DNA of 64,000 bases, from positions 6,831 to 70,830 of the forward strand of contig MFXH01000004.1 in the NCBI GenBank assembly GCA_001788795.1, written 5' to 3'. Source of the DNA: Candidatus Peregrinibacteria bacterium RIFOXYA2_FULL_41_18 (lineage in GTDB: Bacteria > Patescibacteriota > Gracilibacteria > UBA1369 > UBA12470). Every line of letters starts with the position of its first letter. Position 1 is the stretch's first letter. The notes under the pieces are model-generated. The model saw nothing but the letters and a program-made list of their open reading frames with translations, was not told the DNA's origin and ran no database searches. The translations under genes were made by a program, and so were the position numbers. Shown here one piece after another: positions 4,261 to 63,346 of the stretch.

Positions 4261-4563
4261 ATGCTGTCCGAGATTTTTCAAATCTTGGGATTAAGGGGTA
4301 AGGATATACGTATATATCTTTCCTCGCTACGGCTTGGACCACAGCCCGCGAGCGTAATTGCACGCAAAACCGGATTGAAGCGAGTCGATACGTATAACCA
4401 CCTCATTAAGCTATGCGGTATAGGTGTCTTCCGCATACAAAAACGAGGAAAAGTTGCTTTTTTCAGCACATGCGCTCCCGAGCAACTCTCTGATTTGATA
4501 AAAATCAAAAAATCACTAATCGTAGAGGCGGAACGTGGCCTTGAACGAATATCGAATATTTAG
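4261..4563 (+). CDS. short TrmB-family winged-helix transcription regulator (HTH domain only)
   Basis: MLSEIFQILGLRGKDIRIYLSSLRLGPQPASVIARKTGLKRVDTYNHLIKL parallels the N-terminus of the longer TrmB-like gene at 63417. The start was moved to the ATG at 4261, downstream of the promoter. Confidence 0.65.
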   Translation: MLSEIFQILGLRGKDIRIYLSSLRLGPQPASVIARKTGLKRVDTYNHLIKLCGIGVFRIQKRGKVAFFSTCAPEQLSDLIKIKKSLIVEAERGLERISNI

Positions 4564-4593
4564 GGAACCTCTGAAAAATGCCCTCATGACTGT

Positions 4594-4695
4594 AAATGTT
4601 ACAATTTGGCTGCAAACGACTCAGACCTCCTCGCTGGATCTTCTCCTGATACAGCTTCGTCGGTCTTTGCCGTTTTCGCTCGAATTGTAACATTT
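4594..4695 (+). promoter_or_regulatory. long imperfect hairpin in the pdxS leader (possible cis-regulatory RNA)
   Basis: A perfect 13-nt inverted repeat, AAATGTTACAATT (4594-4606) and AATTGTAACATTT (4683-4695), encloses 76 nt. Inner pairings are AAACG/CGTTT and AGACC/GGTCT. Confidence 0.4.
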
Positions 4696-4799: not shown

Positions 4800-5678
4800 A
4801 TGGTTAAGAAAAACACTCCGAAATTGAAAAAGGGACTTGCGCAGATGCTTAAAGGTGGCGTCATCATGGATGTCGTAAATGCAGAGCAGGCCATACTTGC
4901 GGAAAAGGCCGGCGCAGTTGCCGTTATGGCGCTAGAAAGAGTTCCGTCCGATATTCGAAAAGATGGCGGAGTCGCAAGAATGAGTGATCCAAAAATGATT
5001 CGCGAAATAATGAAGGCTGTTACTATCCCCGTAATGGCGAAAGTAAGAATCGGTCATTTTGTTGAAGCCCAAATTCTTGAATCTATCGGAATCGATTACA
5101 TAGATGAAAGCGAAGTTCTTACACCTGCGGATCCGGAATCTCATGTCGATAAATCTCAATTCAAAGTACCTTTTGTATGCGGTGCGACAGGATTGGGGGA
5201 GGCGCTAAGACGAATTAATGAAGGCGCTGCTATGATAAGGACAAAAGGTGAGGCGGGAACCGGCAATGTGATTGAAGCTGTTAGACATTGGAAAAAAATT
5301 CTTCGTGAAATGGAGGCTCTGAAAAAAATGTCAAAGACCGAAATGGCTAAGGCCGCAAAGGAAATGAGAGTCCCTCTTGAAATAGTTGAAGGAGTTGCCA
5401 AGACCGGTCGCCTGCCCGTTGTAAATTTCGCCGCCGGCGGAATCGCAACTCCGGCTGACGCCGCGATGATGATGCAGCTTGGATGCGATGGAGTTTTTGT
5501 CGGAAGTGGAATTTTCAAATCTTCAAATCCTGCAAAAAGGGCTCGAGCGATTGTAGAAGCTGTCATGCATTTCAATGATCCTGCTCGAATCGCCAAGGTC
5601 TCCGAAGGGCTGGGCGAGGCGATGGAAAGTCAGGAGATTTCTAAGCTTGCGGATAGATATGCGGAGAGGGGATGGTAG
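4800..5678 (+). CDS. pdxS: pyridoxal 5'-phosphate synthase, lyase subunit
   Basis: Near full-length colinearity with PdxS ([22 protein letters not shown] ... [34 protein letters not shown] ... ERGW). The start was set at ATG 4800 to match the family N-terminus. Confidence 0.95.
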
Positions 5679-5732
5679 GGGAGGGGGAAGTAGGGGAAGT
5701 GACATAGTGACATAGTGACATAGTGACATAGT
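5663..5732 (+). repeat. composite purine-rich repeat, family A: G-rich 9-mers followed by 4 x GACATAGT
   Basis: The sequence reads ...gaggggatggtaggggagggggaagtaggggaagt followed by gacatagt x4 (5701-5732). It overlaps the pdxS stop codon and ends 6 nt before the pdxT ATG. Confidence 0.9.
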
Positions 5733-8615: not shown

Positions 8616-9575
8616 TTACTGATTAGGAGGATCGATATATTCTTCTTCGTCCTCTTCAGTACCGGACTCCCATTCATCAAGCTGTTCGACAACAGAATCT
8701 ATTTTCGGATATGAATATCCGCCATAATTTGATGACTGCATCGAGTACTCAAACGCCTCTTCGAAATCCGTCATGTCGCCCGAAGCCCGATACCCAACTT
8801 CCGGATATATTTTCACCTTTTGTCCGTTTTGCAATTTAACTTCCACGCCGATTGAATCGATTGGCTCATACTCAAACCCTTGTTCTTCCAAAACCTGCGT
8901 TAACGCCTCCGCCATTTTTTTAAAATCATAGCCGAACCTGTTCGGCTGATAATCTATTGCGCATTGAATGGCTGTAAGTCCGGCGCATAAGTCATCATCA
9001 TCAATCTCGATTGCACCTCTTATTTGGCGCTGTACGTCTTCGCATATCGTACTCGCGATATCATCAGAGTATTCCGCATCTTGCAAGCTTAACGAATAAT
9101 CATAGTCATCAGGTATTTTATTTGGATCTCCGGCATTAGCTGAAACATTGAAATAACCATCGCGTGAATTCATCCCCAAGAAAGCAAACATAGGGGAACT
9201 GTCCTTGAGGTAGATCGCTTCGCTATAAGCACCTTCTTCCCCCGTAACGCATTTCATCATTGCCGGACCGTATTGTTGTGTACATATTATGTCTCCATCT
9301 CTTGCGATACATTTACCGATAGCGCTTAAGACCCCCGGCTTTATTTCGCCTGATGCGAGTCGAGTGAGTCCAACCCTTTTAGACCCCTCGGTTGATGTTT
9401 CGGGGATTTCCGGATCGCCCTGATTTTCAGCCTGAATTTCTTCTTTGACCTCTTGTCTGGCCTCATATGCAGAACCTATCGACTCATCTCCGATTCCTCT
9501 CGGCACCAATAAAGCCGCACCTACTATTAAAGTCCTTCCAATTGATGACCTGCCTATGTCAGGAGAAGATTTCAT
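8616..9575 (-). CDS. hypothetical acidic exported or membrane-anchored protein
   Basis: A 319-aa ORF with one N-terminal hydrophobic segment (TLIVGAALLV) and a very acidic C-terminus. It has its own consensus promoter. No family was recognised. Confidence 0.5.
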   Translation of the reverse strand: MKSSPDIGRSSIGRTLIVGAALLVPRGIGDESIGSAYEARQEVKEEIQAENQGDPEIPETSTEGSKRVGLTRLASGEIKPGVLSAIGKCIARDGDIICTQQYGPAMMKCVTGEEGAYSEAIYLKDSSPMFAFLGMNSRDGYFNVSANAGDPNKIPDDYDYSLSLQDAEYSDDIASTICEDVQRQIRGAIEIDDDDLCAGLTAIQCAIDYQPNRFGYDFKKMAEALTQVLEEQGFEYEPIDSIGVEVKLQNGQKVKIYPEVGYRASGDMTDFEEAFEYSMQSSNYGGYSYPKIDSVVEQLDEWESGTEEDEEEYIDPPNQ

Positions 9576-17482: not shown

Positions 17483-17526
17483 TGAAGAAGTAGGGGAAGT
17501 TGGGGAAGTATGGGAAGTGACGTAGT
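17483..17526 (+). repeat. family A composite repeat (4 x NGGGGAAGT-type 9-mers + GACGTAGT)
   Basis: Units are tgaagaagt aggggaagt tggggaagt atgggaagt gacgtagt. The element starts 2 nt after the rplT stop. Confidence 0.9.
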
Positions 17527-17536
17527 TAAAATTCAA

Positions 17537-17570
17537 GAGCCCTTCGGCGGAAACCGGAGGGCTTTTTTTG
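17537..17570 (+). terminator. rho-independent terminator after rplT
   Basis: AGCCCTTCGG-cggaaa-CCGGAGGGCT stem (one mismatch) followed by a T7 run. Confidence 0.75.
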
Positions 17571-19326: not shown

Positions 19327-19422
19327 TTTTCATCTCTCGCTAGTCCTCGGTCGAAATAAAAACAAATTCCATAAACATCGAAAGTCTTCTATAATCGGGT
19401 TGATTTTATAAAAAACAAAAAC

Positions 19423-30131: not shown

Positions 30132-31004
30132 ATGCAAAATTTCTCCGAAGTTCTCAGTGTCGCCATGTCGTCAGGCTTTGATCTTGGCGGCGTTGCCAAA
30201 CATGTTGTTGACAAATCCGAATGGGAATTTTTCAATAAATGGCTTGCCGACGGATGTGCGGCCGGCATGAAGGAGTGGATGGAACGAGGATCTTCCAAGC
30301 GTGCCGATCCGAGTTTAATTCTCGAAGATGTAAAAAGTGTTATTTGCCTCGCGGTAAATTATTATCCCGGCGATCACAAGTCCGATACCGGACTTGTCGC
30401 ACGTTACGCGTGGGGCGATAATTATCATGAAGTTATCGGAAGTATGTGCAAGAAAGTTTGCGATTTTCTGATTAAAAATTATGGAGACAGCCCAAAGTGC
30501 TATACCGATACCGGTGCGATATTGGAAAGATATTTTGCCGTTAAATCCGGTCTTGGATTTATAGGTAAAAACACCTGCCTTATCACCCCCGAATTCGGTT
30601 CTTGGGTTTTTCTCTCTGTAATTTTTTCCAAAATAGAATTCGAGCCGACTTCTCATGTTGCAACCGGTAAGTGCGGACCATGTGAAAGATGCATCAAGGC
30701 TTGCCCAACCGGTGCCTTAAGTGAAAAACGTGTCGACGCCAGAAAATGCATTTCTTATTTAACGATTGAAAAAAGAGGACCTTTCTCCGACGAAGAGCGC
30801 TCGATGGTCACCGGACAAAATTTCTGTTTCGGATGTGATATTTGTCAAAGCGTTTGCCCTCATAACGTTAGAGCAAAAAAAACTGGCAAATTTAATCCTC
30901 GAGTCGAAAGTTTATCGACCGGTCAGCTCGATACGCTGGATTTGAAAAAAAGTCCTCTTGGAAGGGCTAAGAGAGAAGGGCTTGAGAGGAATCTGGGGAA
31001 GTAG
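30132..31004 (+). CDS. queG: epoxyqueuosine reductase
   Basis: ARYAWGDNYHEV, GLGFIGKNTCLI and two ferredoxin motifs (CGPCERCIKACP, CFGCDICQSVCP). The start was set at ATG 30132. Confidence 0.88.
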   Translation: MQNFSEVLSVAMSSGFDLGGVAKHVVDKSEWEFFNKWLADGCAAGMKEWMERGSSKRADPSLILEDVKSVICLAVNYYPGDHKSDTGLVARYAWGDNYHEVIGSMCKKVCDFLIKNYGDSPKCYTDTGAILERYFAVKSGLGFIGKNTCLITPEFGSWVFLSVIFSKIEFEPTSHVATGKCGPCERCIKACPTGALSEKRVDARKCISYLTIEKRGPFSDEERSMVTGQNFCFGCDICQSVCPHNVRAKKTGKFNPRVESLSTGQLDTLDLKKSPLGRAKREGLERNLGK

Positions 31005-33173: not shown

Positions 33174-33470
33174 ATGAATGCAACTACCACAAGCTACTCT
33201 GACGGACCTGACAAGGATTTTATCCTTTATTTCGTTAGTCAGGTCGTCGAAAATCCAGACGCTGTTTCCGTAGAACGTACTGTTGACGAACTCGGGGTTT
33301 TGATCACCCTGAAGGTGGGCAAGGATGACATGGGCAAGGTCATCGGAAAACATGGTCAAACTGCAAAGGCTCTTAGAACTCTTCTGAGAGTTATTGGCTC
33401 TAAGCACAATGCAAGAGTCAATCTGAAGATCGTTGAACCTGATGGAGCTGAGATTATGATTGAGGGGTAA
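33174..33470 (+). CDS. khpA: KH-domain RNA-binding protein (KhpA/YlqC-like)
   Basis: VGKDDMGKVIGKHGQTAKALRTLL is a GXXG KH motif. Conserved position after rpsP. Confidence 0.8.
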   Translation: MNATTTSYSDGPDKDFILYFVSQVVENPDAVSVERTVDELGVLITLKVGKDDMGKVIGKHGQTAKALRTLLRVIGSKHNARVNLKIVEPDGAEIMIEG

Positions 33471-33513
33471 GGGGAAGTATGAGAAGTTGGGGAAGTATGA
33501 GAAGTGACATAGT
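33462..33513 (+). repeat. family A composite repeat
   Basis: gaggggtaa ggggaagt atgagaagt tggggaagt atgagaagt gacatagt. It overlaps the stop codon of the KH gene. Confidence 0.9.
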
Positions 33514-33973: not shown

Positions 33974-34016
33974 AGAAGAAGTTGGAGAAGTTAAAGAAGT
34001 GACATAGTAACATAGC
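33974..34016 (+). repeat. family A composite repeat (A-rich variant)
   Basis: agaagaagt tggagaagt taaagaagt gacatagt aacatagc. It starts 2 nt after the upstream stop and ends 7 nt before the next ATG. Confidence 0.85.
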
Positions 34017-36789: not shown

Positions 36790-37962
36790 ATGGCTACAAT
36801 GGCAAATGACGACGCAACACAAAAACAAAAAACAAAAAATGACGATTCTTTGAGGACTCTTTTTTCAGGGTCTGCCGGGACAAAAAGAAAAAATCTTGAA
36901 ATCACCCCGGACATAACTCCAGTCGCTTCAATCAAGGTTATTGGCGTCGGTGGCGGTGGCGGTAACGCGATCAACCGAATGATTAAGTCAAACGTTCGCG
37001 GCATAGATTTCATTGCCGTAAACACTGACGCTCAGGCGCTTTATCATTCCGAAGCTCCTGTGAAAATCAATATCGGCAAGGCTACAACTCGCGGTCTTGG
37101 CGCAGGCAGCCATCCTGAAATCGGCAAGCAATCTGCGGAAGAAAGTTCAGAAGAAATAAAGCAGACTCTTGAAGGCGCAGATATGGTCTTCATTACTTGC
37201 GGTCTTGGAGGCGGAACCGGTACGGGTGGATCTCCTGTTATTGCCGAGGTTGCGAAAGAACTTGGCATTTTGACAGTTGCAGTTGTTACTAAGCCTTTCT
37301 CTTTTGAAGGACACCGAAGACGTGTTCAGGCCGAAGAAGGTCTTGAGAATTTGAAAAACAAGGTTGATACAATGATCGTCATTCCAAATGACAAAATTTT
37401 ATCCCTTATAGATAAAAAAACTCCTCTTACCGAGGCGTTCACAGTTGTTGATGACGTTTTGAGGCAGGGCGTACAGGGTATTTCCGATTTGATCACCGTT
37501 CATGGAATGATCAACGTGGATTTCGCAGATGTTCGCGCAATTATGGAAAATGCCGGATCAGCTCTTATGGGCGTAGGCTATGGCACCGGCGAGAATCGCG
37601 CTGTTGAGGCTGCAAGGGCTGCCATCGACAGTCCTCTTCTCGAGATGGATATCGGTGGGGCAAAAGGCATCTTGTTCAATATCACCGGCGGAAACGACTT
37701 GTCTATGTTTGAAGTCGATGAAGCTGCAAGAATTATTACAGAAGCTTCCGATCCTGATGCAAATATCATCTTCGGTGCTGTCATCAATGATTCTTATACA
37801 GGTGAAATCAAGATTACGGTTGTTGCTACCGGATTCGATTCGGCGAAGAAAACCGTTTCCACGATGCACCATACAACCTCTGTTCCCGATATGTCTTCGA
37901 TGAAGAACGTCGAGAGCGAGTACGATATACCGGCGTTTATAAGGCAGAAGATGGGGAACTGA
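36790..37962 (+). CDS. ftsZ: cell division protein FtsZ
   Basis: [35 protein letters not shown]. Confidence 0.97.
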
Positions 37963-38073
37963 TTTTTTGATTATGATTCTCGTTAGTCCTCGCTTACTGA
38001 TTTCTCTCGAGCATGCATGATGCTCTCGAAGAAATCAGTAGCGCTGCGGAAGCGCTCGAATCATAACAAAAAA
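37963..38073 (+). other. 111-nt nested-palindrome element (three-way-junction-like) immediately after the ftsZ stop
   Basis: The outer arms are TTTTTTGATTATGATTC and GAATCATAACAAAAAA. Inner hairpins are CTGATTTCT...AGAAATCAG (37997-38038) and AGCGC-tgcggaa-GCGCT (38040-38056). The 5' junction motif CTCGYTAGTCCTCG recurs at about 19337. Confidence 0.55.
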
Positions 38074-38131
38074 TCTTATGTTCTTAAGGGAGTTTTTCGG
38101 AATCGTTCAGGATATATTCGAGGCACTAATT

Positions 38132-42708: not shown

Positions 42709-43803
42709 TTATTTCTTGTGGGATTGGCGCAAGGACGCTTCGATAAAATCGTCGAGGTCACCGTCGAGAACGTCGTCAACCTGCGACGTTTCGTAATCCG
42801 TTCTATGGTCTTTTACCATTTTATATGGGTGCAAAACGTATGAACGAATTTGGTTGCCCCAAGAATGCTGAACATGTTCGCCTTTCAAATCGCTGATTTC
42901 TTTAAGGTCGTGTTTTTCACGGAGTGCGATAAGTTTTGATTTCAAAATTCTCATCGCGGTTTGCTTGTTTTGCAATTGAGATCTTTCGTTCTGGCATTTT
43001 ACGACAAGACCTGTCGGCTTGTGGGTAAGCCTTACCGCCGAATCTGTTTTGTTTACATGCTGGCCGCCTGCGCCACCCGATCTGAATGTATCAATTTCAA
43101 GGTCGGATTCGTTTATTTCAACATCATCCGTTTCGTGAATTATCGGTGTTACTTCTACAAGCGCAAAAGATGTTTCGCGCGTGCCGCCCGAATTGAACGG
43201 GCTCATGCGTACGAGTCTGTGAACCCCGTGTTCTTCTTTCAACATGCCATATGCGAACGGACCTTTTACCGAAATTTCCGCGCTTTTTATACCGGCTTCT
43301 TCGGCTGCAGTTTTTTCAACAAGCTCAACCTGCCATTCTTTTTTCTCCGCGTATCTCAAGTACATGCGAAGCAGCATTTCCGCCCAGTCCTGCGCGTCAA
43401 CGCCTCCCGTTCCGGAGTGTATCGAGACTATCGCGTCGCTATTGTCATATCTGCCGCCGAGGTAAAGTTGGATTGATAATTTATCGAGTTTTTTCTGAAA
43501 TTCTTCTGCTGATTTTTCGAGCTCGCGGAATGTTTTGTGGTCGGTTACTGGATCCGTTATCTCGGCGAGTTCGAGCGTATCCTCTATTTCTTTTTGAAAA
43601 CCCTCCCATTGTTCAAGAATTTTTCTTATGCGTCCCGCCTCTTCGGATATTTTTTTCGCGTGCGTTGCGTCATCCCAAAAACCCTTTGAGTTCATTTCGA
43701 GATCGTGTTCATGGAGACGTTCTTTGAGTTGCGGAAATTCCAGAAAGCCTTGGGCGGAGGAAACTTCTTTGATTAAGTGAGCTAGATGTTCTTTGAGATC
43801 CAT
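42709..43803 (-). CDS. prfB: peptide chain release factor 2 (single frame, no programmed frameshift)
   Basis: SPF tripeptide (RMSPFNSGG) and GGQ ([20 protein letters not shown]). The start was moved to MDLKEH (ATG 43803). The upstream 27 codons of the track ORF are the antisense of a family A repeat. Confidence 0.92.
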
Positions 43804-43811
43804 TGGGTAGT

Positions 43812-43846
43812 ATAAGAAGTATGAGAAGTAGGGGAAGTGACATAGT
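43812..43846 (+). repeat. family A composite repeat
   Basis: ataagaagt atgagaagt aggggaagt gacatagt, located in the divergent prfB/flippase intergenic region. Confidence 0.9.
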
Positions 43847-43953
43847 AACGGGGGAATAATATATTGCCGGATGGATTGAGGCAAATTCGAATTACGGATT
43901 GCAGATTTTTAATGTCGAAGCTATAGTTTTTTGGCTTAAAAAAGTTTCTCCTT

Positions 43954-55400: not shown

Positions 55401-55696
55401 GGAATTTGTTTAGGATTCTTGAGTTGAAATTGCTCGCAAAAGCGGCAAACCTTACGAATGTTAAGGCTGAAAATGTTCATAGCGATGTTGATAGGCAAAT
55501 CATTCTTACTATGTCTGACAAGGTGAAGCCTGAAAATATTATGAATATGCTTGAGTACAATCCGAAATGGATTATTTCGGGCACGAAATTAAAATGTAAA
55601 TTTAATGATCTTGGCGTGCATTGGGTGGATGAGTTAGCAGAGTGCTTGAAGAAACTTCATGGGAAGGTTGAGAGGGGGAAGTGGATAAGAGAGTAA
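52445..55696 (+). CDS. mfd: transcription-repair coupling factor
   Basis: CarD/TRCF-RID region (YVVHTDHGIGIF), SF2 helicase motifs (GDVGFGKTEVA, DEEQRFGV, TATPIPRT) and a TRCF C-terminal domain. Confidence 0.93.
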   Translation: MSSNLIRLFSDVSDKEVCEQFNSDGVTTISGGGNFSSKAFFLSQIINSKKDAHKILWIVSNYQERDQVILAMRMWSGFHVEPLVLERNETRNDDIERLNKIKTTAFLSKALSKQNNVFVIEYTDALQFYPKPEDLEMGVVKVSTGQKTDAVAFFNSLIAAGYEVSGDKFITKGQYYRSGDLITIFPVNTDLPVVINIGFDTVDKVCFYNQETGTNMADVDSVSIYPVACALNSVSIFDYFGKGSVIVDDDVEVPDIDMPKYEEFLKKADHQAFRVNFTSFMEESSYHHHLHYLSVLKYQNILDFISDVKEKITTEWKILLFTKNTDEYTGVFEDKTVKYETISGEKPLTPFRVNIIHVKKDDVFPIAFQNPKLKVFVVTDREVIDLNEKKKADDAKYRVFSDFLTGLKVNDYVVHTDHGIGIFMGLYKMTVDGVTREYLKIGYAENDKLFVPIDQADRVSKFIGSADQPPRLTRLGSAEWDTITEKVKKETEKIAKELLDLYARRESAKGFAFSGDDKLLEKFSETFPYEETPGQLRAISDVLSDMEKDKPMDRLVCGDVGFGKTEVAMRAAFKAVMSGKQVALISPITILTDQHYKSFKRRMDDFHIRIEMLSRFRSQAEQKKILKGLKDGTVDVVIGTHRLLQSDIEFKNLGLVIVDEEQRFGVKQKEALKSLRTEVDILTLTATPIPRTLNISLHGLRDITTITTPPPGRQPIITEVRRFSYNLIRNSILLEIERKGQVYFLHNRVQTIDDMASKLKSLVPEAKFVVTHGKLSSSELEKRIMAFKDGEFDVLVSSTIIENGIDLPNANTLIVNNAEKFGLAQLYQLRGRVGRGRKQAYAYFLYTQQRLQIDAKKRLRAIVEASELGSGFQIAMKDLEIRGAGDILGANQHGSINIVGVSHFVRMLNQAVEELKSGGSVKAEEKPIEVSIELPIPALIPDDYIANFKDKINVYQKLASADNFKFLSELRAEIEEDFGAIPNEVGNLFRILELKLLAKAANLTNVKAENVHSDVDRQIILTMSDKVKPENIMNMLEYNPKWIISGTKLKCKFNDLGVHWVDELAECLKKLHGKVERGKWIRE

Positions 55697-55760
55697 GGAG
55701 CAAGACACAAGACACAGATAGTATATGGGGGAGGCGGGAGGTTGTGAGTTGGCTTGAGAT
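55661..55760 (+). repeat. degenerate purine-rich repeat tract at the mfd 3' end
   Basis: gggaaggttgagagggggaagtggataagagagtaaggagcaagacacaagacacagatagt... contains family-A-like units (ggggaagt, gatagt) and aagacac x2. Confidence 0.45.
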
Positions 55761-57100: not shown

Positions 57101-57505
57101 GGGGATGTACAGGTTTTGACAGAGGATTTCTTCGGTCAGATATCTTAAGCTCGGCGGTTGCACCGTCCCGTCGTTATAAGAGTTCGGTGCAAAACCAAAT
57201 GCAAGCGAAAATCTTGCCGCAACGCTTTACAGAGCTTTTGCTCCTGTCAGAGTAGCTGCGTAGATGTTTCGGCCATCGTGCCGGAACCCGTTCTTTGGCC
57301 CGATGTCTCATGAGGTCAAAAGAATGTCATTTATGGGGCACGGCGTGTAAATTTGGAGTTTTATTTACTCGCTTAAAATTTAAAACCAACCTTTTGCGGT
57401 TTTTGGCCGGTTCTTTATCGCAAATCGTTAAACAGAGCCGGTTATGGCTTTAAACGGTATTTGCCGGACCTTTGGACGCGGGTTCGATTCCCGCCATCTC
57501 CACCA
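57101..57505 (+). ncRNA. ssrA: tmRNA (ssrA)
   Basis: The 5' end is GGGGATGTACAGGTTTTGAC and the 3' end is GGACGCGGGTTCGATTCCCGCCATCTCCACCA (T-arm, acceptor, CCA). An internal tag ORF starts at GCA 57201 and encodes ASENLAATLYRAFAPVRVAA, with stop TAG at 57261-57263. Confidence 0.93.
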
Positions 57506-57560
57506 GAGTAGATTGCAGTTGGCAGATTGCAGATAGTAGGTTGCAGGTTGCAGGTTGCAG
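57506..57560 (+). repeat. tandem heptamer repeat, 8 units, family B, abutting the tmRNA 3' end
   Basis: (a)gagtag attgcag ttggcag attgcag atagtag gttgcag gttgcag gttgcag. Confidence 0.9.
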
Positions 57561-57650
57561 AAAGGAGGAATGCGTTTTTGAGTAGCCAGAAGCGCGGTTT
57601 TGATGTATAAGCTTGGGGCTTGCCATTAACTCGCTGATGTTAAATCCCTT

Positions 57651-60721: not shown

Positions 60722-61072
60722 GTGCAAGATGTTATCGAAAAATTCATTCGCGGTAGTGGCGCCGGAGGACAGAAGATAAATAAAACTTCCAGCTGTGTTT
60801 GGTTAAAACATTTGCCAACAGGTATCGAAGTGAAGTGCCAGCGGTTTCGCGAACGCGAAAAAAATAGAGAAGAGGCTTATAAACTTCTGCGTTTGAAAAT
60901 AGATCAGGCTGTAAATTGGCGCGAGTCGAAAAAGGCAAAAGAGATTTATAAAATTCGACGTCAAAAGCAGCGGAGGTCGAAGAGGGCGAAAGAAAAAATG
61001 CTTCGTGGAAAAAAAATAAGAAGCGAGGTAAAGAGAAGTAGGGGAAGTAGGGGAAGTGACATAGTGGGATAA
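60722..61072 (+). CDS. arfB: GGQ-domain peptidyl-tRNA hydrolase (ArfB/ICT1-like ribosome rescue factor), GTG start
   Basis: GSGAGGQKINKTSSCVWLKHLPTGIEVKCQRFREREKNREEA (RF domain 3) plus a long Lys/Arg tail. The last ~12 aa are read through a family A repeat. Confidence 0.7.
   Translation: MQDVIEKFIRGSGAGGQKINKTSSCVWLKHLPTGIEVKCQRFREREKNREEAYKLLRLKIDQAVNWRESKKAKEIYKIRRQKQRRSKRAKEKMLRGKKIRSEVKRSRGSRGSDIVG
61031..61065 (+). repeat. family A composite repeat
   Basis: aagagaagt aggggaagt aggggaagt gacatagt, located inside the 3' end of the arfB-like ORF. Confidence 0.9.
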
Positions 61073-63298: not shown

Positions 63299-63346
63299 GG
63301 GTAGATGGCAGGGAAGAAGTTGGGGAAGTATGAGAAGTGACATAGT
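63299..63346 (+). repeat. composite repeat showing the full order: GGTAG - heptamer (atggcag) - 9-mers - GACATAGT
   Basis: gggtag atggcag ggaagaagt tggggaagt atgagaagt gacatagt. Confidence 0.9.

Follow-up and report, generated by a model that had tools for sequence, protein, structure and literature searches.

The 64,000-nucleotide stretch analyzed here (the window; contig MFXH01000004.1, positions 6,831 to 70,830, of Candidatus Peregrinibacteria bacterium RIFOXYA2_FULL_41_18) carries in its gene junctions a composite, G-rich tandem repeat in which 9-nt units (nonamers) are followed by 8-nt units (octamers). An initial annotation of this DNA had reported eight such arrays, all reading on the plus strand and placed at the 3′ boundaries of genes. 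A regular-expression scan of the window recovered all eight at or near the positions that it gave, and both the nonamer-then-octamer architecture and the strand lock proved to be real. Our results showed that the arrays follow the replication strand and are not locked to gene direction. The copies in the window are the following:

5679–5732, plus strand: copy 1, GGGAGGGGGAAGT AGGGGAAGT and then 4 × GACATAGT; occupies the pdxS–pdxT spacer
17483–17526, plus strand: copy 2, four nonamers and one octamer (GACGTAGT); begins 1 nt past the rplT TAA
30994–31044, plus strand: copy 3, three nonamers and three octamers; the queG stop lies within the array
33470–33513, plus strand: copy 4, four nonamers and one octamer; overlaps the TAA of a KhpA-type KH gene (33174–33470)
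33974–34016, plus strand: copy 5, three nonamers and then GACATAGT and AACATAGC
43812–43846, plus strand: copy 6, three nonamers and one octamer; in the divergent spacer between prfB (minus strand) and a flippase gene
61031–61065, plus strand: copy 7, three nonamers and one octamer; inside an arfB-like open reading frame (ORF; 60722–61072)
63312–63346, plus strand: copy 8, three nonamers and one octamer; between the relA/spoT stop, 219 nt upstream, and the next plus-strand ORF, 70 nt downstream

The identities first given to the neighboring genes were correct: Pfam confirmed pdxS, rplT, queG, the KhpA-type KH protein, a type IV secretion system (T4SS)-pilin-like protein, the RF-1-domain arfB-like protein, prfB, and the Polysacc_synt flippase. 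Two boundaries had to be moved. Copy 1 had been taken to start at 5663; positions 5663–5678 are the conserved …ERGW* end of pdxS, which is also present in element-free orthologues, and the order of features is …GGATGG, the pdxS TAG (5676–5678), the array from 5679, AAAATT, and the pdxT ATG (5739). Copy 8 had been placed from 63299, and its array begins at about 63312.

Adjacency to a stop codon, also described earlier, holds for copies 1 to 5. The queG stop (TAG, 31002–31004) is created where nonamers 1 and 2 of copy 3 meet, an intrinsic-terminator hairpin (17535–17566) lies 3′ of copy 2, and copy 5 is flanked by the stop of the pilin-like gene (33972) and the ATG of a 5′–3′ exonuclease gene (34024). 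Adjacency fails for copy 8 and for copy 6, whose nonamer end is 8–11 nt from the minus-strand prfB ATG, with the flippase start 107 nt downstream and no gene 3′ end there. As had been noticed, the last codons of the arfB-like gene lie in an array: copy 7, read in-frame, encodes the final ~12 residues (KRSRGSRGSDIVG) of this 116-aa protein and has been absorbed into its basic C-terminal tail.

The forward strand was said to close all three reading frames in the copies at 5663, 30994, and 61031. Three-frame closure holds in copies 1, 2, 3, and 5; copies 4, 6, 7, and 8 close two frames, and at 61031 the arfB-like ORF continues through copy 7 to end in …KRSRGSRGSDIVG*. An all-frame translational stop, proposed as one role, therefore describes only half of the window copies. 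The reverse strand, said to be free of stops, is so in seven of the eight copies. Because the antisense strand of copy 6 is stop-free, the longest prfB ORF (42709–43884, minus strand) runs artefactually to a TTG at 43884, which bears out the earlier account of a false N-terminal extension; the likely start is the ATG ~8–11 nt before copy 6 (MDLKEHL…).

The nonamer/octamer junction, searched as AAGTGAC[AG]TAGT, occurs at eight sites on the plus strand of the window and at none on the minus strand, and the junction word GAAGTGACRTAGT has eight exact matches on the plus strand and none on the other. At up to one mismatch, GAAGTGACRTAGT has 10 matches, all on plus, with 0.13 expected from dinucleotide shuffles; these counts are so far above expectation that the repeat must be real. 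Three additional plus-strand copies lie on the contig just beyond the window (L151:528, L262:11491, and L262:11830; loci examined beside the window carry an L number). The density is thus 8 arrays per 64 kb and 11 per ~79 kb of contig, or about one per 7–8 kb.

We extracted 115 non-redundant composite copies from the window's contig and related loci; part of them are mutually orthologous and hence not independent. The loci were chosen for carrying the element, but the search pattern was strand-neutral. For gene calling, the long ORFs of these loci served to train a codon-usage model, which reproduces the gene map of the window; gene and leading-strand calls both come from simple, purpose-made models. 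In these copies, one to eight nonamers (mode 3) precede one to six octamers, the order being invariant, and 78% of the arrays have a lone octamer. The consensus is W-G-R-R-GAAGT for the nonamer and GACRTAGT for the octamer. The most frequent nonamers are AGAAGAAGT (48), AGGGGAAGT (47), TGAAGAAGT (33), TGGGGAAGT (23), and GGAAGAAGT (22), and C is nearly excluded from them, variable positions included. The array can also be parsed as purine heptamers GRRGAAG separated by a 2-nt spacer (T plus one base) and capped by GACRTAG-T.

Several identities were rejected. A G-quadruplex is ruled out because G-runs are not conserved, AGAAGAAGT being as frequent as AGGGGAAGT. CRISPR arrays, already dismissed in the initial annotation, have repeats of ≥23 nt with unique spacers, whereas the units here are contiguous and 8–9 nt long. 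Folding of the arrays, which are 26–50 nt long, gave no significant structure: the minimum free energy (MFE) was 0 to −6 kcal/mol, and z-scores were non-significant in five of six folded copies and marginal in one (z = −2.24). Being unstructured, the arrays are not intrinsic terminators, which consist of a GC-rich hairpin and a T tract. A search of the window in Rfam matched only a transfer-messenger RNA (tmRNA) and none of the arrays.

A 460-kb scaffold in a groundwater metagenome assembly (ENA ERZ28563708) contains the window sequence unchanged. The pdxS of the window is nearest to those of Peregrinibacteria/Peribacteria metagenome-assembled genomes (MAGs), with 92% identity to JBAYGX01 and ≤83% to the others. 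A scan with GAAGTNNNRGAAGTGACRTAGT of one genome per species (185,579 species) found the element in one other genome, JBAYGX01, at 29 loci; nucleotide similarity between JBAYGX01 and the window is confined to the repeat and three small patches. At least 107 metagenome stretches carry it, grouping into lineages whose mutual flanking identity is 75–85%. Composite copies were absent from 832 kb around pdxS in 80 other genomes (~35 of them Peregrinibacteria) and from IMG/VR viral contigs, and other Peregrinibacteria have different short tandem words of their own in the pdxS–pdxT spacer. A literature search by sequence words returned nothing relevant on the element, and no description of it was found in the Peribacteria genome paper. 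The standard genetic code fits this organism: recoding (code 25 or 4) is ruled out by the 88% ORF coverage under the standard code and the presence of prfB.

Arrays occupy about one in six gene junctions. Relative to its neighbors, the array is in tandem and sense in 46 of the 115 copies, in tandem and antisense in 13, convergent in 16, and divergent in nine; the remainder have incomplete contexts. The nonamer, origin-proximal end is closely fitted to genes. At 72 of 102 copies, a co-oriented gene ends against it or takes its stop codon from the array (median gap −1 nt; 83% within −25 to +12), and 14 of these stops are the TAG in GAAGTAG. Spacing is looser at the octamer end, where the next co-oriented start is a median of 65 nt away (≤12 nt in only 11% of gaps) and a convergent stop 38 nt away. 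At operon ends, the order is stop, array, and terminator hairpin. About 30 copies, however, stand next to a divergent gene's START codon, the ATG being a median of 8.5 nt from the nonamer end. In antisense and divergent cases, CAT lies 0–5 nt from the nonamer end about half of the time (~9% by chance), so these cases are genuine and the element is not locked to gene direction. The placement at gene 3′ boundaries reported for the window thus describes most copies and fails for the antisense ones and for those at a divergent ATG.

These distances bear on an RNA-level explanation, in which the array would define 3′ ends, stabilize RNA, bind proteins on the mRNA, or act as a three-frame fail-safe stop. 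The fit to co-oriented stops, the 14 copies that supply their own TAG, the order at operon ends, and the 46:13 ratio of sense to antisense in tandem junctions all speak for it, and heptamer repeats of Beggiatoaceae and cyanobacteria have been considered post-transcriptional signals (PMC4679880). Nevertheless, we regard an RNA-level role as unlikely. The 13 antisense copies are antisense to both neighbors, and with the ~30 at a divergent ATG they have no place in it; the sense excess is what a 60:40 gene-strand bias predicts; only four of the eight window copies close three frames, and one ORF runs through its array; and the arrays have no RNA structure. Two further counterarguments, from orientation and occupancy, are given with the junction counts below. 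We read the adjacency to stop and start codons as a by-product of genome compaction and, for the stops, of the array's own stop triplets, not as targeting.

The orientation of arrays is nearly uniform within a contig: 67 of 75 match the leave-one-out majority, among them 10 of the 11 antisense copies. Skew at third codon positions (GC3 and AT3) goes with the DNA strand rather than with the gene, so the leading strand could be inferred from it at each locus. At locus L122, for example, GC3 skew on each gene's own coding strand is +0.53 to +0.67 in plus-strand genes and −0.41 to −0.45 in minus-strand genes. Measured on the strand of the element and pooled, GC3 skew is +0.20 in co-oriented and +0.06 in anti-oriented genes, and AT3 skew −0.21 and −0.15, respectively. 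On the leading (G/T-rich) strand so defined there are 60 arrays, and on the lagging strand eight (skew 0.88). In the window, AT3/GC3 skew and cumulative GC skew both mark plus as the leading strand, and all 11 arrays in and around it are on plus. Tabulating orientation against gene direction and GC skew, as had been suggested, proved the decisive test; it upheld the strand bias and did not yield a lock to gene direction. The junction types are as follows:

Tandem junctions of leading-strand genes: 23 of 23 arrays on the leading strand; occupancy 23/119
Tandem junctions of lagging-strand genes: 5 of 11 arrays on the leading strand; occupancy 11/76
Convergent junctions: 8 of 8 arrays on the leading strand; occupancy 8/46
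Divergent junctions: 8 of 8 arrays on the leading strand; occupancy 8/38

Occupancy is similar in all four types (14–21%), and its independence of junction type, like the leading-strand orientation in 16 of 16 classified convergent and divergent spacers, counts against an RNA-level element. In the tandem junctions of lagging-strand genes, five arrays are antisense (on the leading strand) and six are sense (on the lagging strand). The six collapse to about three regions, two of them orthologous between species, and can be explained by old inversions that moved gene and array jointly. Inversion cannot yield antisense copies from an element locked to genes, and the antisense copies are therefore not explained by it. 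At L264, array orientation flips, but locally and within a run of plus-strand genes (ftsX, recO, and one that is cytidylyltransferase-like), so the site is ruled out as an origin of replication. The relatives of the window genome (L122, L256, L264, L241, and others) show extreme strand asymmetry, with GC3 skews of +0.5 to +0.67 and AT3 skews of about −0.3 to −0.55 in leading-strand genes and mirror values in lagging-strand genes; in the window genome, the asymmetry is much weaker and AT3 skew is dominant.

A conserved word that is non-palindromic, follows the replication strand, and is blind to gene arrangement suggests that it is read by something travelling in one direction along the chromosome. 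Two classes of such words are known: the FtsK-orienting polar sequences (KOPS) and SpoIIIE recognition sequences (SRS), read by FtsK/SpoIIIE, and Chi, read by RecBCD/AddAB. On this basis, our tentative preference is to read the arrays as a DNA-level, replication-polar chromosome signal like KOPS/SRS, which would load FtsK, and not as an mRNA signal, although we hold this as a possibility short of an even chance. The element would work like a KOPS-type signal; we do not assign it to the KOPS family. The DNA-binding-protein array suggested in the initial annotation is accordingly a live possibility.

KOPS and SRS are a subset of the architecture-imparting sequences (AIMS), and the arrays resemble them in being non-palindromic, purine- and G-rich, and read 5′ to 3′ on the leading strand. 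The proven KOPS of L. lactis is GAAGAAG, that of E. coli is GGGNAGGG, and the SRS of B. subtilis is GAGAAGGG (PMC3384302); the array heptamers GAAGAAG/GGGGAAG are near all three. Known KOPS have skews of 0.79–0.91 and a density of ~1 per 12 kb (PMC3384302), and the array values (0.88 and about one per 7–8 kb) are comparable, both falling at skews of ~0.8–0.9 and near one per 10 kb; the density around the window is above the ~1 per 40 kb taken as the minimum for KOPS. The gamma domain of FtsK binds weakly to a single KOPS and well to three consecutive motifs, multimerized KOPS being its best targets (PMC3384302). An element-bearing genome encodes such a domain (PF09397, E = 8e-25; homologous to PDB 2VE8/2VE9), and the complete genome of Ca. 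Peribacter riflensis, of the same class and another genus, has FtsK and XerD in its annotation. A search for FtsK-gamma homologues returned only short fragments of ≤70% identity. At L311:12150–12414 (minus strand), a gene ends in the FtsK gamma domain (~90 last residues, at the end of the locus), and a composite array lies within ~10 nt of its stop on the same strand.

The recognition helix of this gamma domain is altered, reading GYARASRLID here and GYNRAARMIE in Pseudomonas. In E. coli FtsK gamma, an Asn is required for reading KOPS, and at this position the lineage has Ala. In the mechanism that we propose, two to four GRRGAAG heptamers at 2-nt spacing would form a high-affinity, direction-giving loading site for a translocase of the FtsK/SpoIIIE type, and this array-type equivalent of KOPS/SRS would direct DNA pumping toward the terminus. 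In a compacted genome, the origin-proximal side would retain the array alone, whose TAG/TGA would often terminate the upstream ORF. Polarity may then have been concentrated in ~150 intergenic cassettes (a GRRGAAG array plus a GACRTAGT cap) read by an FtsK with altered gamma domain or by another replication-oriented machine, a more specific proposal that we consider possible but not probable.

Several findings weigh against a polar signal of this kind. KOPS of the classical type are single motifs, skewed and over-represented genome-wide, that are scattered and lie for the most part inside genes. The isolated words here do not behave in this way, and polarity is seen only in the intergenic tandem arrays. 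With the arrays masked, 461 kb of skew-oriented sequence gave no polarity for GAAGAAG (108:116) or GACATAGT (5:3); GGGGAAGT (11:2) and GAAGAAGT (32:15) did lean, probably through degenerate array remnants. The obligatory GACRTAGT tail, which KOPS/SRS lack, and the fixed order of nonamers and octamers have no role in the FtsK model. About 12% of the copies are on the lagging strand, some persistently across species (L136/L264 and L123/L315). The element is restricted to a very narrow clade, and FtsK is universal. A search of the examined loci for dif gave only matches at chance level, and ori was likewise not located there. Further lineage-specific tandem words of 7–9 nt fill the same spacers, several leaning to the leading strand, which hints at a general repeat-generating process.

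The main rival to the polar-signal reading is a minisatellite, functionless or selfish, resembling the cyanobacterial short tandemly repeated repetitive sequences (STRR), whose orientation would be fixed by a replication-linked origin, such as growth by slippage or templated addition on the single-stranded lagging-strand template, and which would persist because spacers tolerate it. We see this as a possible explanation, if not a probable one. The many other tandem words in Peregrinibacteria spacers, the narrow clade, the unskewed dispersed words, and the long-term tolerance of wrongly oriented copies all fit it. Examples of these words are GACAGAGT, AGAGTTAC, CTTACGA/CTTATGA, CAGTTAC, AATACCG, GCATACAA, and TTTCTGA, at L292 (3′ flank of groEL), L290, L273, L282, L287, and L142 and in the pdxS–pdxT spacers of L180, L181, L183, and L187; some form inverted blocks that make long hairpins around terminators.

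Comparison between genomes bears on the minisatellite most directly. Copy 1 is identical in six assemblies of the population at 99.65%–100% identity, so hypervariability by slippage is ruled out. Between species at 75%–83% nucleotide identity, ~14 orthologous junctions share an array in the same orientation; unit numbers differ (4 vs. 8 nonamers; 1 vs. 3 octamers), as a minisatellite would have it, and ~5 orthologous sites have a diverged purine-rich relic or other words in one species. When orthologous arrays were aligned by anchoring at the nonamer/octamer junction, the GAAGT cores of the second and third nonamers upstream of it were 92%–100% and 77%–92% identical, and the variable nonamer positions 30%–75%. 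This indicates vertical inheritance with constraint on the core and on the 9-nt register and does not resemble recent transposition. The cross-genome comparison that had been proposed thus found both orthologous arrays and variation in unit number, and the conserved core argues against random slippage.

The conservation of the core fits a minisatellite poorly. Cores and register stay intact while variable positions and flanks diverge. Slippage homogenizes whole units, yet adjacent units differ in their variable parts, and C is nearly excluded even there. More than 100 sites, in at least two or three species, preserve the two-module order, copy number is constant among strains at 99.65% identity, and no known mechanism produces such an architecture. 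For the targeted mobile minisatellite of the initial annotation, no signature was found: the flanks have no consensus and no target duplication, and there are no inverted or palindromic ends and no clean empty sites, features expected of miniature inverted-repeat transposable elements (MITEs) or repetitive extragenic palindromic (REP) elements. IMG/VR has no copies, and orthologous sites are occupied in both species or have diverged purine-rich relics.

The strand lock also suits two other explanations. In one, the arrays would be polar Rho utilization (rut) sites that terminate head-on transcripts, including the antisense of leading-strand genes, since only these transcripts carry the C-rich, G-free complement (ACUAUGUC)(ACUUCYYCW)n. 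The complement strand is indeed G-poor, C-rich, and unstructured, a leading-strand lock gives exactly the required polarity, and the 3′ ends of leading-strand genes, where arrays lie, are the entry point for antisense RNA polymerase. Even so, we think rut sites very unlikely: in lagging operons, the rut-like strand would stand 0–5 nt before the next ATG and be polar on essential genes, and the arrays are short for the purpose at 26–50 nt. The annotation of the complete Ca. Peribacter riflensis genome lists no Rho, and a Rho search of the examined loci matched only non-Peregrinibacteria, both of these being weak checks.

In the other, the arrays would be Chi-like hotspots read by a helicase–nuclease of the RecBCD/AddAB type. 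Like the arrays, Chi is a polar, G-rich word in excess on the leading strand; it is read in one direction, Chi and KOPS are alike in skew and over-representation (PMC3384302), and tandem units would raise the probability of recognition. Chi sites, however, are single, dispersed 5–8-mers, and the dispersed words here are unskewed. The readers are not evident in the related genus either, as Ca. Peribacter riflensis annotates no RecBCD/AddAB and only a small RecB-family nuclease. A Chi-like role seems highly improbable to us.

The nearest described repeats in form are the TAACTGA heptamers of Beggiatoaceae, cyanobacteria, and Bacteroidetes and those of Nostoc. Together with STRR, they share with the arrays an unstructured, intergenic, tandem nature, >100 sets per genome, short units in 2–6 copies per set, stop triplets, a period that is not a multiple of three, and a position at gene boundaries without canonical ribosome-binding sites (PMC4679880; bioRxiv 10.1101/2022.06.06.494920). 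TAACTGA and STRR repeats have a single 7-nt unit, however, whereas the arrays have 9-nt and then 8-nt modules. The former lie mostly a few nucleotides upstream of starts on the coding strand and are thought to be translational signals; the arrays do not, adjoining the gene on their origin-proximal side, at its stop or start, in an orientation that follows the replication strand. A Shine–Dalgarno (SD) or translation-enhancer role is ruled out, since the leaders are A/T-rich without SD and the array is typically ~65 nt from the next start. Throughout the window (e.g., 8616–9575, 19423, and 35454), start codons have A/T-rich leaders without an SD motif, and translation initiation in this organism seems to proceed without SD pairing.

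Elements of the IS200/IS605 type are replication-oriented through their use of the lagging-strand template. Like these, the MITEs, and the REP elements with their composites, the bacterial interspersed mosaic elements (BIME), the arrays are repeated in intergenic DNA. Unlike them, they have no palindrome, hairpin, terminal inverted repeats, target duplication, flank consensus, or associated transposase, and their copies are orthologous across species and have not recently moved. We see the element as a polar chromosomal motif or else as a short tandem repeat of intergenic DNA, with a fair chance of its being a new polarity-signal architecture.

If it is such a signal, it would be the first defined in the Candidate Phyla Radiation (CPR). 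Uncultured CPR bacteria would gain a sequence marker through which the direction of replication, the place of the terminus, and chromosome segregation could be approached. The signal would also make replichores readable from fragmentary MAG contigs and mean that KOPS-like guidance can shift from genes to compact cassettes; the FtsK gamma domain and the array would be a testable DNA–protein pair. If functionless, the element would be a clean natural case of a minisatellite whose orientation is set by replication. Under any explanation, annotators should expect stop-free antisense ORFs, false N-terminal extensions (prfB), and stops or C-terminal tails (queG and the arfB-like gene) from these arrays.

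Other repeats and conserved elements occur in the spacers of the window. The initial annotation listed a degenerate copy of the composite repeat at 55661–55760, which is mostly the end of mfd and a different heptamer module:

55698–55725, plus strand: accessory module of heptamer period, AGCAAGACACAAGACACAGATAGT, directly after the mfd stop

This module (CAAGACA/CAGACAG) also flanks composite copies in related genomes (L128, L132, L139, L145, L253, and L266), and its words AAGACAC and ACAGCAG are distributed 5:0 and 5:1 between leading and lagging strands. A tmRNA gene (57101–57505; tag ASENLAATLYRAFAPVRVAA) is followed at 57507–57561 by an AGATTGC tandem repeat of ~7 copies with a 28-nt super-period.

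Directly after ftsZ (37961–38076, plus strand) lies a hairpin element of ~115 nt (MFE −49.5 kcal/mol, z = −6.9), with an outer stem GATTTTTTGATTATGATTC…GAATCATAACAAAAAATC and conserved inner boxes CTCGYTAGTCCTCGCTTAC and GTAGCGCTGCGGAAGCGCTCGA. It has a partial copy near 19336, and others are at L133:3040–3180 (minus strand), L134:800–920, L158:6921–7030, and L160:6906–7000. JBAYGX01 has it at ~84% conservation, and in other Peregrinibacteria a related version lies after pdxS. The element belongs to no Rfam family and may be a non-coding RNA or a structured repeat found across the clade. Upstream of pdxS, an intergenic patch (4563–4669) without Rfam match even at E ≤ 1 is 81% conserved with JBAYGX01 (L137:2278–2384), where the flanks are no longer alignable, and may be a regulatory or non-coding RNA element.

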